Origin: Escherichia coli | GTDB lineage: Bacteria; Pseudomonadota; Gammaproteobacteria; Enterobacterales; Enterobacteriaceae | Assembly: GCF_044324875.1 (NCBI RefSeq) | Contig: NZ_CP172185.1 | Length of the DNA: 64,000 nt | Strand: one strand, 5' to 3' | Shown here: piece by piece, positions 24,764 through 31,241 of the stretch | Layout of the letters: each line of letters begins with the position of its first letter | Position numbering within the stretch: position 1 is the stretch's first letter | Notes under the pieces: model-generated | What the model saw: the letters and a program-made list of their open reading frames with translations, nothing else | The model's database searches: none | Told to the model about the DNA's origin: nothing | Translations under genes and position numbers: made by a program

Positions 24764-24847
24764 ATGGACAAGCAACGCGGTTTTACACTTATCGAACTGA
24801 TGGTGGTCATTAACAGTAAATTACTGTACAAATACCGCATCTGTTAA
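24764..24847 (+). pseudogene. ppdD: ppdD 5' fragment: first 15 codons of the type IV prepilin (MDKQRGFTLIELMVV) fused to 12 island-derived codons, then stop
   Basis: ATG at 24764; the N-methyl-Phe prepilin leader GFTLIELM is intact up to codon 15; frame then runs into AT-rich island DNA (INSKLLYKYRIC*). Confidence 0.75.
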
Positions 24848-25181
24848 TTCATCTCTCTCCCACAATGCCACAATCCATAACATATTGATTTTAATACATA
24901 ATGATATCAAAAGGATTTGAACCATCTTAACCATCACTTCCCATTTTTAGACCCCCTTCTACTATATTTCTCGTCAGTAGAGATCTAATGGCATCTTTTC
25001 ACCTACGCACTAATAACGTATCCTTTGCTTTCGCCAAAATGGTGGTAATCATCTTTAGAACATAGTAAAAATACTGTTGATTTCTATATAGTTCTACCTC
25101 TCCTTTAGTTGTTATTAAGATGGCAGTTTCAAATCAGGAACACATAGGTATCATGTACTAACAGCTTTATAACTTAATCAG

Positions 25182-26468
25182 GTGCTAACCATGGACTCGA
25201 AATCTCTTGTTGAACTTTCCCATGATATACAATCCGGACTAGGAAACATTGACGTTCCAGATTTTGATAACATCAAAACTATCGGAATGGCATCAATACT
25301 AGCAATGCATATACGCGGATTGGGAGAAATTGATTATGAAGTTTTAAGGAAAGTCAGTGACTTCTTTTTCAACATACCTTCATATGCTTTAAAAAGCGTA
25401 TTGGAAGTACTGGCTGAGATAGAATATGTAGATTTAATAACGAAAGACAAAAAAATATTGTCAGTAATTCCAAACGTTCCTCGATTCAAAGATCTCTATC
25501 AAGGTGTTGGTGATTATTTCACATTTAGCGATCTCAACGAACATGAGCAAGGCACATTGATAATATTATCTAATCTTCAAAACAAACCCGAAAACAGAGA
25601 CAAACTAATTCATTCTACAGGCATCGACAATACTCTTTTTTCTCGTTGTTTAGAGATTGGTGAAAAAGGTAACTATTTTAGAAATTATAGAGCTAGAGGA
25701 AAAAACATCATAGCTAGCCCATTTTATTTTGCCGATAATTTAGAGTCACTTGTCGATATTTCAGCCAAAATTGGTTCGAATGATATTGATGCTGTTTTAA
25801 AAATTATAAAAGATAATCAGGGATGGCCTCTCTCACTGATCGAATCACAATTAGAAATCGGTGGAAAAAAGCTAACAAAAGTACAAAAAGAACTTTTAAT
25901 TGGTTTTTGCCAAGAGGGTGTACTCAAACCCCCTTCAATTGATTTCGGAAACCAAAAACAAGAAACATTCATATTCACACCGAGGCCCGGAAATATAAAA
26001 TTGAATGCAGCTAACAGAGAGATTTATGAACGAGCAATGGCGTTAGTTTCTTGCGTTAGGAAAGGACAATTACTGCACGACAAATATAGAATAAGGCTTC
26101 CAGTTAGGATATTGGAATCATTAAAAGAAAAAGGTTATCTTAATCAAAATTCAGAAGCTGCATCCCAGTATAGGAATCTGGTGTTTTTGAAGGTTGGAAT
26201 GCTAAAAGCTAAGGATCATAACAAGTGGGAATTTCATTTAATAAAAACAGAAGAAAACATTGAAGCATTAGATTTAGCAATAAGTCTCTTAAAAACAGGA
26301 GAACTTGCAAATTTAGAAGTTGATCAAAATGCAAAAATAGCATTAACACAAGATGAAAAATACATTCAATCGATCATTAGCTCCGCAGAACTTAGAACTA
26401 GAGAGAAGATAAAACAAAGCGAGGAAGCAAAAGAACAATTTGAACAACTGATTTTCGAAATGGAGTAA
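25182..26468 (+). CDS. uncharacterised protein, island cargo gene A (no recognisable motif)
   Basis: 428-aa ORF from GTG at 25182; more likely ATG at 25191 (MDSKSLVELSHD...) preceded by AGGTG; AT-rich codon usage; first gene of a coupled pair. Confidence 0.6.
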   Translation: MLTMDSKSLVELSHDIQSGLGNIDVPDFDNIKTIGMASILAMHIRGLGEIDYEVLRKVSDFFFNIPSYALKSVLEVLAEIEYVDLITKDKKILSVIPNVPRFKDLYQGVGDYFTFSDLNEHEQGTLIILSNLQNKPENRDKLIHSTGIDNTLFSRCLEIGEKGNYFRNYRARGKNIIASPFYFADNLESLVDISAKIGSNDIDAVLKIIKDNQGWPLSLIESQLEIGGKKLTKVQKELLIGFCQEGVLKPPSIDFGNQKQETFIFTPRPGNIKLNAANREIYERAMALVSCVRKGQLLHDKYRIRLPVRILESLKEKGYLNQNSEAASQYRNLVFLKVGMLKAKDHNKWEFHLIKTEENIEALDLAISLLKTGELANLEVDQNAKIALTQDEKYIQSIISSAELRTREKIKQSEEAKEQFEQLIFEME

Positions 26469-27571
26469 TGGTAATGGCTAACTTAGATAAAGACCTAGGT
26501 TTGAAGCAAGACGCTATAAGGTTTTGCTTGATAAATGGTTACTTGCCATTTTTAGAAGTTAACGTTGAAAACTATAGGGAACTTTCTGATACATCTACAA
26601 TTATAACAGATGTAGATGTTTTAGGGGTTGCTTTTGATATAACTGGAAAAACCAGAAAGATAATTTTCGATTGTAAAACCATTAAAAATACCAGCCCTAT
26701 TAATAGAGCGTTTTGGGCTTCCGGTGTTATGAATTTTTTAGGCTATGATGAAGCATTCATCATATTAAGAAAGAAAGCAAGTGAGGCCCATAGACTTTCC
26801 GCAAAAACAATTAATGTCCACCTTTTTGATGAAGATCAAATGAAAGGATATGCTCAATCATTTTCAATGAATTTCAATATTGATTTAAGCTACTCTACGG
26901 ACATTAATAATTGGATAAGTATACAGGAAGTATATAAAACAGATAAAACCATCCAAAAATATGGCGAATTTTTAGCAAGTTCGGTTCCTACAGAAAATGA
27001 TCCAGCGAAGAATTTGAGAAGATTTATTGCTGCTTTACAAAAAGTGAAGAATGAACTAGACCCTCAAAAAAATAAACACAGAGCAATTTACTTGCATAGT
27101 CTAATGACATTCTCATATATTATGGCATGCTTAGTGCAGCAACTAAGAGGGTTAATTGATTTTGATTATAATCAGAATGAATTCACAAGACTTCTCAAAT
27201 ATTATATCTGGGGAGGGAAGGATAGCTTTATATTAAGACATAAGATGAGAGAACTAATCTCATCTAATGACAGTTCGATTCAAAATATAGAGCCAGAGTT
27301 AAGGAATTGGGATGACTTTATTGAACTCACAAGGAGTCTACTTGACTCTCCTAATGATATAATTAAATGTTGCCATGTGTTACGTGAATTTAGTTTTTTA
27401 GAACTATCCATGCATGACATTAAAAAGGATGAGCAACTATCCACTCTAATTTCAGATAATTCAAGAATTCGTCAATTTATAATGATAATGGCTAGATACT
27501 TAACCAACTCGATGAAAATGCCAAAAGATTTCATTAACGATCTAGTATCAATATTTGATAGATTGAGATAA
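26468..27571 (+). CDS. uncharacterised protein, island cargo gene B, with N-terminal PD-(D/E)xK-like nuclease motif
   Basis: 367-aa ORF; ATG overlaps the stop of gene A (TAATG); alternative ATG at 26474 has better GGAG spacing; motif TDVDVLGV...(18 aa)...IIFDCK. Confidence 0.6.
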   Translation: MVMANLDKDLGLKQDAIRFCLINGYLPFLEVNVENYRELSDTSTIITDVDVLGVAFDITGKTRKIIFDCKTIKNTSPINRAFWASGVMNFLGYDEAFIILRKKASEAHRLSAKTINVHLFDEDQMKGYAQSFSMNFNIDLSYSTDINNWISIQEVYKTDKTIQKYGEFLASSVPTENDPAKNLRRFIAALQKVKNELDPQKNKHRAIYLHSLMTFSYIMACLVQQLRGLIDFDYNQNEFTRLLKYYIWGGKDSFILRHKMRELISSNDSSIQNIEPELRNWDDFIELTRSLLDSPNDIIKCCHVLREFSFLELSMHDIKKDEQLSTLISDNSRIRQFIMIMARYLTNSMKMPKDFINDLVSIFDRLR

Positions 27572-27577
27572 AAAGAA

Positions 27578-27609
27578 GAGCAGGCTCGAATTAAATTTCG
27601 TGCCTGCTC
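27578..27609 (+). terminator. Hairpin after cargo gene B
   Basis: gagcaggc-(16 nt)-gcctgctc inverted repeat 7 bp after the stop at 27571; no clear T-run. Confidence 0.35.
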
Positions 27610-27708
27610 ACCATATAAACAAATGATAATAACTCATTCAACTAGATTATCTTTAATTCAGAGCAGTAATGATTTTCTTAATAACAATTCCCCTTTCTGA
27701 ATCCCATC

Positions 27709-28266
27709 TCAGGAGGCATTCATTTCTTTTTTCACGCGAAACACTGTAGCCCTGCCACAATCGCACAACTTTGCAATCTCATCCGGTGTGTTCTTCCCAG
27801 CTTGAAGCATCTCAATGATTTTACTGTGTAATTCTTTGTTCTTTTGCTTTCCTTTATACTTCTTAGCCTCTTTAGCAAGGGCAATTCCTTCGTTGCGACG
27901 TGATGCGATCATTCCCCGCTCAAATTCTGCAACGGCTCCCATCATGGTTAAGATTAAACGAGATTGTGGGGAGTTATCGAAACTCATTGAGTTAGCAAGG
28001 AACTGAACAGTGATCCCGCGAGCAACGAGGCTATCAATCATTTCCAGCAAATCGCGGGTATTACGTGCAAGGCGATCAATCGAGTGAGTCATGAGCGTAT
28101 CACCTTCGCGGAGGTGTGAAAGCAGGTTCAACAATTCAGGTCTCTCGCTGGTGGACTTACCTGATTCTTTCTCGGTGACGATTTTGTCACAAACAGGTTC
28201 CAGTACTGCCAACTGACGCTCAAGATTCTGATCCTTTGTTGAGACTCTCGCGTAACCAAAAATCAT
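27709..28266 (-). CDS. small serine recombinase (resolvase/invertase family)
   Basis: ORF 27709..28296; likely start MIFGYARVSTKDQNLERQ (ATG at 28264-28266 on the minus strand, preceded by GAGGGCAGGGAA); catalytic Ser in the YARVST motif; C-terminal HTH. Confidence 0.8.
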   Translation of the reverse strand: MIFGYARVSTKDQNLERQLAVLEPVCDKIVTEKESGKSTSERPELLNLLSHLREGDTLMTHSIDRLARNTRDLLEMIDSLVARGITVQFLANSMSFDNSPQSRLILTMMGAVAEFERGMIASRRNEGIALAKEAKKYKGKQKNKELHSKIIEMLQAGKNTPDEIAKLCDCGRATVFRVKKEMNAS

Positions 28267-28285
28267 TTCCCTGCCCTCACCGCTG

Positions 28286-28356
28286 ATAAGTATCATTTAA
28301 ATTAACTGAATGATACAGTATCATTTAAATTCTTTCAATGTCTAAATGATACTAAA
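28286..28356. repeat. res-like recombination site: two adjacent palindromes built from four GTATCATT(T) half-sites
   Basis: GTATCATT(11 bp)AATGATAC at 28290-28316 and GTATCATTT(17 bp)AAATGATAC at 28318-28352, directly upstream of the resolvase start. Confidence 0.5.
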
Positions 28357-28814
28357 CGAGACAAGAAAAACGGGTATCGTTAGGGAGTACCCAAAAGAGA
28401 TTTTTGATCGTGCGTTTTTTAGTCAATGTAGGGTTAGTGAAAAGTTCAGTACCGAGATCTGAGTTCACGGCATTTTGTCGACGGGGTTGAACCTGATTAG
28501 GCGAACGAGATTTTAAATCAGGCGGAATAAAACAAGTTGTACTTTTATCTGAGTAAACGATCCCTTTAACTTTTTAGTCAGAAATCGTGATACTAGGGGT
28601 TTGGTTATTTTGTGTCCTTAAGGCCAGTACTTTTAGCGAGGACGAAAAAACGGCCTACATGAGAACGCTTACAGTAACTTAAGTATATTATCCAAAAAGT
28701 CACTTAACTTAAATCAATTTGGATGCAAAATCGCCACACTTTGCAAGTGAACACATACCGGGCAACAAGCAAATAAAAAAGGCCACTTTCGCGACCTTGT
28801 ACCAGTACAAACAC

Positions 28815-29174
28815 TCATTCAGAACGATCAAGTACCATATATGCTGGCTGACACATGCTGCCCCGCTCCTGTAGCCAGTAGTAATCAAGATCGGCAACAC
28901 GCACGTCCAATCCAGAATCTACACGGTTGATCTGTAACCGTAGCCCTACAGTATCCTTGTACGATAAACCAGATTTAACATTGTATTTGTACTTAACACC
29001 GTTTTCCTGTTCAAACTGTTTAAGGAAAGGCGTCATTTGTTTCTGAATTTCTTTCAAACAAATAACCTCATTATCAATAGCAAAGGGGGGTTCTGTTTTT
29101 CCATCAGGTACAGCAGCCTGTAAATGAAAGGAAGTACTCAACAATAACAGCATTGCAACAGAAGTCTTTTTCAT
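28815..29174 (-). CDS. small secreted or periplasmic protein of unknown function
   Basis: 119-aa ORF with signal peptide MKKTSVAMLLLLSTSFHLQA; 43 bp downstream of the membrane protein gene on the same strand. Confidence 0.5.
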   Translation of the reverse strand: MKKTSVAMLLLLSTSFHLQAAVPDGKTEPPFAIDNEVICLKEIQKQMTPFLKQFEQENGVKYKYNVKSGLSYKDTVGLRLQINRVDSGLDVRVADLDYYWLQERGSMCQPAYMVLDRSE

Positions 29175-29217
29175 TTTAATTCCTTATTAAAGAACAGTAC
29201 ATTATATTTCAATGGAC

Positions 29218-30258
29218 TTAATAACAATATTTTATATTTCCTTCGGGTTTTCTCATGCATTTAATTCCTTCAGGAATATAATCAGTTACGGGAGCAGGTC
29301 TGGCATCAGGTCTTGAAAGACGATTGGATATAGAAGACAACAGACTGAAAACACACTCATTAAATGATTTTTGATATTTATTTTTTTCATAAAAGTACTG
29401 CATGGTGATTTTATCTCTTTCGTATTGCAATTCTTTGCCAAGCTGAATCCTATCCATATCAATTCCATTTCTCATAGCATTAAATCTTTCGTTCAATAAA
29501 TTAAATTGAGATTTATTCCATTCATTTAAAGGAAATAAAGAATTGTTAAGCCTTTGCCTACAATTAGATTGCTCGATAGCTGACATGTATTCTTTCATAC
29601 TAACGCCAATATCTAAGTATGTGAGTTGTCCAGCAGTTCTATCAACTGAGTTATTAGGGTAAGATTTAATTTCAGTAAGTATTGACTCTGTTAATACTGC
29701 ATTTTCTTCTAAATCTTTGCTAATAGTTATTTGAGCTTGTTCTCTTTTATCCTTATCAAATATTGAAATGTATTTCTTTACTATATCCTGATTAGCTTTC
29801 TCGGCTGCTACTAACGCATCTTGAACCTTCTTTTCCGCCGCTTTAACTCGTTGTTCTTCTACAAATTTCGCGTAGTCATCAGTATTTGTAATGTGATTTT
29901 CACGAGCGATAGAAAACTCTTTACTATCTTTAAAACCAAGTTTTTGTGCTCTGGCTCCATCGCTTGAAGATCGGGCAGAACTTGCCACGAAAGCGAGCAC
30001 AATGATCAGTACAGGAACCGTATAATTATTAACGAGTTTATAGGGTAAGAACTTCGCTTTAAGCGTACCATAACCCAAAACAGCCCAGCCTATCGCGGCA
30101 GTACTTGCCAGTAGCTGGCACAATCCAGCGACGGAAAGCATGATTACCGACCAGAAGCCTGTACCGACTGCGAAAAGATCACCAAATTTCTCCATTGACG
30201 CAAGGAATAAAAACACTCCCCAAATGCCATAAAATCCTATTTTCAAATATTTACTCAC
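29218..30258 (-). CDS. membrane protein of unknown function (three N-terminal TM helices, coiled-coil soluble domain)
   Basis: 346-aa ORF; hydrophobic segments at about residues 7-22, 36-64 and 81-95; Lys/Glu-rich predicted coiled coil; AT-rich. Confidence 0.55.
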   Translation of the reverse strand: MSKYLKIGFYGIWGVFLFLASMEKFGDLFAVGTGFWSVIMLSVAGLCQLLASTAAIGWAVLGYGTLKAKFLPYKLVNNYTVPVLIIVLAFVASSARSSSDGARAQKLGFKDSKEFSIARENHITNTDDYAKFVEEQRVKAAEKKVQDALVAAEKANQDIVKKYISIFDKDKREQAQITISKDLEENAVLTESILTEIKSYPNNSVDRTAGQLTYLDIGVSMKEYMSAIEQSNCRQRLNNSLFPLNEWNKSQFNLLNERFNAMRNGIDMDRIQLGKELQYERDKITMQYFYEKNKYQKSFNECVFSLLSSISNRLSRPDARPAPVTDYIPEGIKCMRKPEGNIKYCY

Positions 30259-30493
30259 CGCAATTATCCTTTAATAATTTTCCAAATCGATGGTTCGTTC
30301 TATTTGTATTATCGACAATAATTCGTTTGCCTTTAGGTAGATCCCTTAAAAAGGAATCCCCCCAAAATTTATAGATTAGCAGTTGTACCACTCTCACTGT
30401 TTTGTCACTCCCATTATCTTCTCTCAGGTCAAAAGTACGGACTTAAAGCCGTCCGTGTTCAGGTGCTCAAGAGTAGCACGCATATCAATAAAT

Positions 30494-30584
30494 GATCGAT
30501 AAAAACGATCAATTAATGGATTATTGATTGCTATAATCGATCAATTACTATTAATTCAATACAAATCAATAGGTAAAATCGATC
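30494..30584. repeat. Cluster of four GATC-centred (A)TCGATCAA(T/G) motifs in an ORF-free island segment
   Basis: GATC at 30494, 30507, 30539 and 30581 within 90 bp of AT-rich DNA, each in a similar CGATCAA context. Confidence 0.4.
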
Positions 30585-31241
30585 AAGAGGATTCGTCATC
30601 CATGAAAGGGGTTATGTATCTGATTTCAATACAGGGAGTATTAGCGATACCATCACGCAAACGCTCTTAAAGCGTAGCTACGGCGTTTTGTAGGGTTTTG
30701 GTCATTCATGTGTGTCAGTAATGAACATCGCATTCAGGGGCTTCCTGTGCGTTTTGTCCGAAACACCATCATGAAGGGGGACAGATCGGATCGGGGTCGC
30801 TTCGCTCTGGTCAGTACTGGATAGTTCTTTTCCAGTAACTGAAACCGCAGATCCCCCACTAAGTACACAAAGGAATCAGTAGTATAATAAGTAATTAAAT
30901 AGCAATCAGTTATGTACTGAATGACAGAACAGAAAAACGCGATTGGTTCGCTCTGCCAGTGACTGAAAGGAACGAAGCAGTAGAACCTAATCCAGCGAAC
31001 AGTACACGCAAAGCGGGTACTGTTTAATTGTTTTATCTATGTAAACAATGGGATAGCTATCAAGTACTCACTGCGTGAGCACTCTCACTAACTACCCGAA
31101 ACAGTTCGCTTGCTTCGCCGCTCCTACTTTCAGGTAGTTAATTCGCTTTCGCTCGTTGTGATGTCCGAAATTTATTACCTATAGTATTATAAGGTATTAT
31201 TTTCCGGACATTTATGTATTTTTATGATGGTGTTCTGGACA

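Follow-up and report, generated by a model that had tools for sequence, protein, structure and literature searches.

A coupled gene pair on an island that splits ppdD

We analysed a window of 64,000 nucleotides from the chromosome of Escherichia coli (contig NZ_CP172185.1, assembly GCF_044324875.1), in which the gene order reads aroP-ampE-ampD-nadC, then a genomic island, then ppdD-gspE-hofC. The island extends from about 24812 to 34380 (9.6 kb) and contains two adjacent uncharacterised genes, here called A and B, which an original prediction made from the letters of this DNA had put forward as a candidate novel defence system. That prediction placed the pair as cargo on a recombinase-bearing island, and we agree: the element splits ppdD, is bounded by direct repeats, carries two serine recombinases and has a low G+C content (GC) of 36% compared with 51-52% in its flanks. 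The two genes are as follows, each with the start codon favoured by alignments of homologues and by the Prokaryotic Genome Annotation Pipeline (PGAP).

25191-26468, plus strand: gene A, 425 amino acids (aa), starting at ATG 25191
26474-27571, plus strand: gene B, 365 aa, starting at ATG 26474

The two same-strand open reading frames (ORFs) described originally are both present, at 25182-26468 (428 aa when read from a GTG) and 26468-27571 (367 aa). The TAATG reported to join them is found at 26466-26470, but B probably starts at ATG 26474, outside that motif, with ATG 26468 inside it as the alternative start that gives 367 aa. A GGAG at 26462-26465 lies 8 nt upstream of ATG 26474 and just 2 nt upstream of ATG 26468. 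Because of these two possible starts, A and B either overlap by one base or are spaced by 5 nt, and the tight coupling claimed for them holds for either. In every relative examined the spacing lies between a 4-nt overlap and a 6-nt gap, indicative of translational coupling as a conserved feature. Judged by the length of their reading frames in DNA of 32-34% GC and by their many relatives (621 scored for A and 213 for B, with 454 B representatives at 50% identity from an exhaustive profile search), A and B are real genes rather than chance ORFs.

Both proteins are labelled hypothetical in every public source, and neither found anything significant in PADLOC 2.0, NCBIfam, PHROGs, Pfam or PDB sequence profiles, in keeping with the earlier failure to recognise them. 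The earlier statement that they are not Gabija, Septu, Kiwa or Hachiman is likewise consistent with the absence of any significant PADLOC 2.0 component match for A or B. PADLOC 2.0 returned no family at all for A, and for B just PD-T4-9_C (E 0.0093), a match spanning 62 helical-domain residues that we discarded as noise along with the YpfM, Hemocyanin_N and phrog matches, all at E >0.1.

B is a predicted Mrr-like nuclease

The predicted structure of B is of high confidence, with a predicted local distance difference test score (pLDDT) of 88.5 and a predicted template modelling score (pTM) of 0.88. Its parts, in the numbering of the 367-aa form, and its putative catalytic codons on the plus strand are listed below.

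B residues 10-121: PD-(D/E)xK (Mrr-like) nuclease domain
B residues 122-366: helical domain without any match
26555-26557: codon of E30
26609-26611: codon of D48
26615-26617: codon of D50
26669-26677: codons of D68-C-K70

In the model, residues 10-121 adopt the alpha-beta-beta-beta-alpha-beta core of restriction-endonuclease-like nucleases, with the D...(D/E)xK pattern on strands 2 and 3 and an acidic residue upstream, as is characteristic of the PD-(D/E)xK superfamily. E30, D48, D50 and D68-C-K70 are invariant across 40 relatives. Among 55 more distant relatives, at 18-28% identity, D48 and D50 are kept in all 55, D68 in 54, K70 in 49 and E30 in 47. The nuclease-like N-terminus suspected originally is thus a PD-(D/E)xK domain, and the residues singled out at the time (D50, D68 and K70) are exactly the catalytic ones. 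By its modelled fold, B is a member of the PD-(D/E)xK superfamily that is closest to Mrr-type enzymes. Sequence profiles detect this kinship faintly: Pfam Mrr_cat (PF04471) matches 2 of the 55 distant relatives at E 0.0016-0.1, and the E. coli protein has no Pfam match, so that the Mrr_cat threshold is not reached. The portions of the DefensePredictor supplements covered here (Science 2026; PMC13092281) list an HHblits match of B to an Mrr-type Type IV restriction endonuclease (REase), with a probability of 96.8 over 35% of the protein.

B departs from Mrr in that winged helix and nuclease do not share a polypeptide; no N-terminal DNA-binding domain is seen in the B model, and the winged-helix modules belong to the separate protein A. 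In structure searches the nuclease core resembles Can2, Card1, Cap4 and NucC, and the subunits of BspD6I are also among the structural matches of B. The helical domain found no informative structural match, and its rate of evolution is about 1.8 times that of the nuclease domain (mean p-distance 0.57 vs 0.32).

A is a predicted array of winged-helix modules

The predicted structure of A resolves into the following parts.

A, approximately residues 49-94, 117-175, 197-261 and 304-350: about four helix-helix-helix-hairpin units
A residues 372-407: conserved segment, predicted to be disordered or of low confidence
A residues 411-424: terminal helix

Each unit has the make-up of a winged helix in the model, that is, a three-helix bundle followed by a beta-hairpin wing. 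The original prediction had seen no obvious helix-turn-helix (HTH) in either protein; this did not survive, as winged-helix (wHTH) modules make up most of A by prediction. Two stretches are basic, residues 97-176 with an isoelectric point (pI) of 8.4 and residues 263-371 with a pI of 9.6. No catalytic motif is seen in A. The C-terminal segment 372-407 holds an invariant Y391-I-Q-S394, and the block 381-400 (EKYIQSIISSAEL) has a conservation of 0.83, among the highest in the protein, together with a pLDDT below 50. Conservation paired with predicted disorder in this way is characteristic of peptides that take up their fold on a partner.

Structure searches with A gave matches to single winged helices only, with no match to the whole architecture. 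Foldseek against AFDB50 retrieved full-length relatives of about 415-440 aa from many phyla, nearly all of them unnamed; the labelled ones are two 'XPB/Ssl2 N-terminal domain' proteins, one ScpB and one 666-aa DUF3883 protein. This last entry, A0A7C3I3D2 ('DUF3883 domain-containing', AFDB50 rank 37), aligns with A across about 434 columns. We take DUF3883 to be a restriction-endonuclease-like domain; if this is right, A0A7C3I3D2 would be a natural fusion of an A-type array with a nuclease, and would support the notion that A-type proteins work with nucleases.

A and B are inherited together across phyla

Relatives of the pair occur in Gamma-, Beta- and Alphaproteobacteria, Cyanobacteria, Planctomycetota, Chloroflexota, Deinococcota, Myxococcota, Actinomycetota and Bacillota. 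The order A then B is kept from Proteobacteria to Streptomyces and Priestia, and order and tight spacing together persist down to 22-33% identity, Actinomycetota and Bacillota included. B relatives at 26-29% identity still have an A relative (33-42% identical) immediately upstream, and on a Streptomyces plasmid an A protein of 22% identity overlaps by 4 nt with the next gene, which matches the B profile with 99.8% probability. We compared the distance matrices of A and B for 49 pairs located on the same contig and obtained r = 0.91, where the best of 1,000 partner shuffles reached 0.34. This co-divergence indicates that the partners have been inherited together without being exchanged; as far as sequence comparison can tell, A and B are an obligate, co-inherited pair.

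The pair is rare and mobile. It is present in 6 of 5,426 complete E. coli genomes, always in ppdD, and on 10 of 72,556 plasmids, and a search of 50,697 phage genomes found no homologue of A or B, evidence against a function encoded by phages. In P. aeruginosa it is cargo on tyrosine-integrase islands and in Marinobacter on a P4-like int/AlpA/primase element. Defence genes lie within 3 kb of A/B in three unrelated genomes. An NsnB-like ATPase directly adjoins the pair in Duganella, a DRT UG35 reverse transcriptase and a helicase are 3 kb away in Nostoc, a methyltransferase and a DpdJ/MkoA-like helicase are about 1.2 kb away in Pseudomonas, and a TIR protein is about 2 kb away on a metagenomic contig. 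In most examined loci A/B stands alone. In Pseudomonas two more conserved genes lie downstream of the pair on the same strand, of 267 and 248 aa in P. aeruginosa (11213-12762 in its loci) and of 205 and 444 aa in strain LRP2-20 (11232-13258 in its locus). None of these genes has a Pfam or PADLOC match, and they may be extra cargo or lineage-specific accessory components.

A/B is found nearly always on or beside integrative elements, insertion sequence (IS) elements or plasmids. The machineries of transposition and recombination include winged-helix proteins as well as PD-(D/E)xK nucleases, TnsA-type nucleases being one example. These two points favour a function for the mobile element itself, be it an addiction or stabilisation module, the exclusion of competing islands or plasmids, or an accessory role in excision or transfer, which on balance we regard as improbable. 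The carriers are unrelated to one another (serine-recombinase islands, tyrosine-integrase islands, a P4-like element and plasmids of several phyla), so that the pair is tied to no single mobility machinery, and no integrase or transposase is found among the genes with Pfam annotation that lie within 10 kb of the pair in Duganella and Nostoc. Moreover, within its island family A/B belongs to the variable part and not to the backbone, in a slot that otherwise holds defence systems.

We also considered a horizontally mobile host factor for DNA repair or recombination, in which a NucS/EndoMS-like, structure-specific nuclease would act with a DNA-binding partner, as the XPB/Ssl2 label that UniProt gives to a few A relatives might suggest. 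This explanation is hard to reconcile with the extremely patchy distribution in E. coli, with a GC of 32-34% that is foreign to flanks of 51-52%, with a location in a defence cargo slot and with the lack of a conserved chromosomal position in any examined taxon, and we give it very little credence.

The pair occupies a slot that holds defence systems in sister islands

The fixed backbone of the island recurs in roughly 50-80 E. coli genomes. It is made up of the small serine recombinase, two proteins of 119 and 346 aa, the conserved 983-bp stretch, an integrase and a P-loop protein (about 477-518 aa). Besides ppdD, such sister islands occupy thiM, yggR, ffs/ybaA and ybhA, that is, at least five chromosomal sites. 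They share with the ppdD island the same or a related small recombinase, identical 119-aa and 346-aa proteins and, at 97% identity, the 983-bp stretch; the integrases of the family vary, being either large serine or tyrosine recombinases, and differing defence cargo is carried on either side of the small recombinase. Similarity between the ppdD island and its sisters in other E. coli genomes sets in near 27715-27721, where the small recombinase gene has its 3' end, and this marks the part of the island to its left as an exchangeable module.

24812-27715, plus strand: exchangeable cargo module (leader, A, B and hairpin)

We sampled the cargo of eight sister islands, representing six cargo configurations, and scored it with PADLOC. 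In all eight, the positions for cargo beside the small recombinase hold defence genes, known or candidate, that PADLOC recognises. The configurations are Hachiman (HamA at E 2.4e-120, HamB at E 8e-296); a ThsB-like TIR protein with a PDC-S60 NACHT protein; an NsnB-like ATPase with its partner; Lamassu LmuA/LmuC/LmuB; a CBASS cyclase with a 2TM effector, plus a PDC-S20 KAP nucleoside triphosphatase (NTPase); and an mREase_II-like protein with an adjacent HNH gene, plus PDC-M45A. A/B sits in the outer slot, in the same place and orientation as HamAB of a sister island, and is in this sense cargo of a variable slot otherwise holding known defence systems. The defence context, which the original prediction had drawn from the island and its resolvase, is strengthened by this sampling.

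The cargo of one sister-island variant, in E. coli SBF45 and O68:H12 97.3, contains a trio of dual-OB-domain (PDC-M45A), DUF488 and DUF4326 genes, and an HNH endonuclease that adjoins a DUF6998 protein with a match to methyl-directed Type II REases (8.6e-62); these gene combinations are candidate defence modules. A survey of E. coli defence islands (PMC10121019) makes no mention of ppdD, thiM, yggR, ybhA or serine recombinases.

Proposed function of A and B

From the slot, the conservation of the pair and the nuclease fold we infer a role in defence, which we regard as likely. That A/B is a self-contained two-protein anti-phage (or anti-mobile-DNA) system, travelling as exchangeable cargo of integrative islands, is the interpretation we favour, with somewhat better than even confidence, and about half of the weight we give to defence goes to the specific targeting model described here. 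B would be the effector, an Mrr-like PD-(D/E)xK nuclease whose metal-binding and catalytic residues E30, D50, D68 and K70 are intact. A would be a non-enzymatic array of about four winged-helix modules, kept at a level matched to B by translational coupling. It would bind nucleic acid through the basic modules 97-176 and 263-371, dock on B, probably via the conserved and disordered C-terminal segment 381-425, and target or license cleavage by B. The complex would then cut DNA bearing a feature that the host lacks, such as a modified base, a DNA structure or some phage-specific feature. As the module has neither a methyltransferase nor an NTPase, the sparing of self-DNA must lie in the recognition by the complex, and A/B would amount to a split, Type IV-like, methyltransferase-less restriction enzyme. 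A more detailed version, which we put forward tentatively, is a minimal restriction system of new architecture, free of both NTPase and methyltransferase, in which A senses a hypermodified base or a replication or packaging structure, the C-terminal peptide switches on B, and the helical domain of B is the target of counter-defence.

The main rival keeps the role in defence and makes A a guard or inhibitor instead of a targeting subunit. By this abortive-infection or toxin-antitoxin logic, B would be a nuclease that is dangerous at all times and A, made first and in parallel, its stoichiometric inhibitor; a phage product, or a loss of A brought on by the phage, would free B to degrade host and phage nucleic acid indiscriminately. 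Several observations fit it. The putative inhibitor gene comes first and is tightly coupled to the next, as in type II toxin-antitoxin operons; A and B co-diverge strictly, with no swapping of partners; no methyltransferase is at hand to protect self-DNA; and the core of B resembles Can2, Card1, Cap4 and NucC, which are indiscriminate abortive effector nucleases. In addition, the conserved, predicted-disordered C-terminal segment of A could occupy a site on B. Against it, A exceeds B in length (425 vs 365 aa), comprises about four folded modules and is better conserved than its partner, unlike typical small labile antitoxins, and no protease or other trigger component is encoded. We consider this rival unlikely and retain targeting by A as the preferred mode of action.

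A number of observations weigh against the reading of A/B as a targeted defence system. PADLOC 2.0 lists neither protein, even among its candidate (PDC) systems, and parts 1-2 of the three parts of DefensePredictor Table S6, which cover all named DS systems, contain no matching unit. The Aeromonas and Thalassotalea loci have no neighbouring defence genes, and a promoter scan found no consensus sigma-70 promoter on the plus strand of the leader. The model of A is of moderate confidence (pLDDT 74, pTM 0.69), and the protein as a whole is acidic (pI 5.7). Contacts between proteins, too, are mediated by winged-helix modules, so that DNA binding by A is putative. Lastly, A is more conserved than B (mean p-distance 0.36 vs 0.49), which is unusual for a reader of fast-evolving phage features and fits neither the targeting nor the inhibitor model cleanly. 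The fastest-evolving element is instead the helical domain of B, which may, going by its rate of change, be the interface for specificity or counter-defence.

Comparison with known systems

Mrr-family Type IV enzymes, including the DpnI/HhiV4I-type fusions (PMC11037411), resemble A/B in using winged-helix modules as the presumed reader of nucleic acid and in having neither a cognate methyltransferase nor an NTPase in the module, and winged-helix-nuclease fusions that read N6-methyladenine (6mA) provide a precedent (PMC11037411). They differ in that the winged-helix part of A/B is a separate 425-aa protein with about four modules in place of one fused domain, and in that B has an extra helical domain of 245 residues without known counterpart. 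Recognition and cleavage are also separate in split Type IIS enzymes, as in the large and small subunits of R.BspD6I or the recognition and cleavage domains of FokI. Yet the large subunit of R.BspD6I also has a catalytic domain, whereas A is without catalytic motif, and A/B lacks the methyltransferase partner of Type IIS enzymes. Nor is it a classical restriction-modification system, as PADLOC and NCBIfam searches of the island ORFs found no cognate methyltransferase.

Hachiman (HamA, a DUF1837 nuclease, with the helicase HamB) is likewise a nuclease-based two-gene system and uses the same slot and orientation in a sister island. In contrast, A/B has no helicase or ATPase, its non-nuclease gene comes first, and neither protein has a PADLOC match to HamA or HamB. 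Shedu (SduA, DUF4263) differs in being a single gene; it gave no PADLOC match, and the accessory domain of B is C-terminal and unrelated. Hachiman, Shedu, Gabija, Septu, Lamassu and the CARF-nucleases (Can2/Card1) were all dismissed as identities for the pair, given the lack of sequence matches and the absence of the required helicase, ATPase or CARF domains. For type II toxin-antitoxin systems the gene order fits, but A is a multi-domain protein of 425 aa that is more conserved than B.

The END nucleases, in which a Type IIS-like nuclease is fused to an inactive EndoIII sensor (bioRxiv 2025; PMC12191111), offer a precedent for a methyltransferase-less nuclease that spares self by sensing hypermodified phage DNA through an all-helical sensor. 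They differ from A/B in being a single polypeptide with no winged-helix partner, and a structure search showed no EndoIII similarity in the helical domain of B.

Boundaries, backbone and non-coding parts of the island

Both island junctions in the split ppdD contain a 12-nt direct repeat, ATGGTGGT(C/T)ATT, which reads ATGGTGGTCATT at the left junction and recurs as ATGGTGGTTATT at the right end. The junctions, and the remaining features of the island in order, are given below.

24764-24811, plus strand: 5' ppdD fragment, codons 1-16 (MDKQRGFTLIELMVVI), ending in the left junction; annotated by PGAP as a short prepilin N-terminal fragment
24812-25190, plus strand: non-coding leader of the cargo module, 379 bp, 34% GC, no ORF of 60 aa or more
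27578-27609, no strand assigned: stable hairpin between the convergent B and recombinase genes, -21.9 kcal/mol, z = -7.3
27709-28296, minus strand: small serine recombinase (invertase/resolvase-like), first backbone gene; XisF/Mpi/resolvase-type matches, all under curated cut-offs
28289-28340, no strand assigned: pair of 24-nt direct repeats, 83% identical, that together make an imperfect palindrome immediately 5' of the recombinase gene; candidate recombinase sites
28815-29174, minus strand: 119-aa protein with a hydrophobic N-terminus, possibly a signal peptide (read by eye)
29218-30258, minus strand: 346-aa protein with a hydrophobic N-terminus (read by eye)
30259-31241, minus strand by its backbone block: conserved ORF-free stretch of 983 bp, no ORF longer than 59 aa
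31242-32717, minus strand: 491-aa P-loop protein with a weak ResIII/DEAD N-terminus
32793-34355, minus strand: 520-aa large serine recombinase, closing the backbone block 28815-34355
34379-34408, plus strand: right island junction, AACAGTAAA then ATGGTGGTTATT and the ppdD remainder, from sequence comparison with the left end

The ppdD remainder resumes at 34397, and the annotated downstream 'ppdD' (134 aa; 34397-34801) starts at an internal Met, without the first 16 codons. These codons, which we take to encode the prepilin leader and cleavage motif, have been left 9.6 kb upstream, and the pilin gene is therefore probably inactivated in island carriers.

The AT-rich leader of about 370 bp noted originally is present at 379 bp, but at 34% GC it is about as AT-rich as the island as a whole. 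The promoter scan gave fewer sites than in shuffled controls, and the leader has no Rfam match. Across the whole island the sole Rfam match was L20_leader, over the terminator hairpin, at E 0.29 and far under the gathering score, and was put aside as a chance match. The hairpin reported 3' of gene B is real; its orientation, however, is that of a terminator of the convergent recombinase gene, with the T-run on the minus strand, where UUCUUUUUAU follows. From this T-run we regard it as the likely terminator of the recombinase gene, which may be bidirectional.

The original prediction had also placed a resolvase and a res site next to the pair. A resolvase-like small recombinase is there, while the res site comes down to repeats upstream of it. 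A 29-nt imperfect inverted repeat (72% complementary; 27621-27649 and 28298-28326) brackets the small recombinase gene, and by their sequence the repeats around this gene may be binding sites of res- or hix-like character. Because the similarity of sister islands breaks at this gene, one may speculate that the recombinase acts in the exchange or inversion of cargo.

The 983-bp stretch at 30259-31241 is 97-100% conserved at differing chromosomal sites in 49 genomes with at least 80% coverage, has no Rfam match and is unannotated in all 49; possible roles in the element are those of an origin, a site for packaging or recombination, or a large non-coding RNA. RefSeq labels the 491-aa protein 'type III restriction endonuclease subunit R'. 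It matches ResIII at E 1.6e-4 over about 50 N-terminal residues and has no PADLOC match, and the label looks over-specific. None of the other island ORFs gave a significant PADLOC match, and NCBIfam matched just the two recombinases.

Prior prediction and implications

The word 'novel' in the original prediction can be kept in part. No name or experimental record was found for the pair; B, however, has already been machine-predicted. Table S10 of DefensePredictor (Science 2026; PMC13092281) includes it (WP_129560323.1) under the label 'predicted novel defense gene', its mean log-odds being 8.80. In that study 45% of the tested predictions were validated overall, and the validation rate correlated with the log-odds at r = 0.95. 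Among the supplements searched, the B accession occurs in Table S10 only and A was not found, and parts 1-2 of the three parts of Table S6 contain no two-gene unit of about 2.38 kb and neither accession. The A and B accessions had no match in the main texts of the papers, and a paper on domain-centric discovery (PMC13069673) mentions neither Mrr nor a winged helix. The pair is best described as a putative form of nuclease-based innate immunity with a new partner family and a new accessory domain, and is not categorically new.

Many such defence candidates exist. What makes A/B a good target for cloning and plaque assays is the combination of cargo-slot evidence, conservation across phyla and an uncharacterised partner. 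With known or candidate defence cargo in all eight sampled sister islands, the slot is also a practical place for seeking further systems. If validated, the pair would be a compact, 2.4-kb two-protein immune system that spans many phyla, with a non-nuclease partner drawn from a large protein family that has no characterised member, and would make it possible to test how a nuclease of the restriction type keeps from harming self when neither a methyltransferase nor an ATPase is at hand. Should the tentative model of a minimal, NTPase-less restriction system be true, the A family, whose remote structural relatives extend to Bacteroidota, Bacillota, Actinomycetota and other groups, would constitute a new and widespread class of immune sensors or adaptors.

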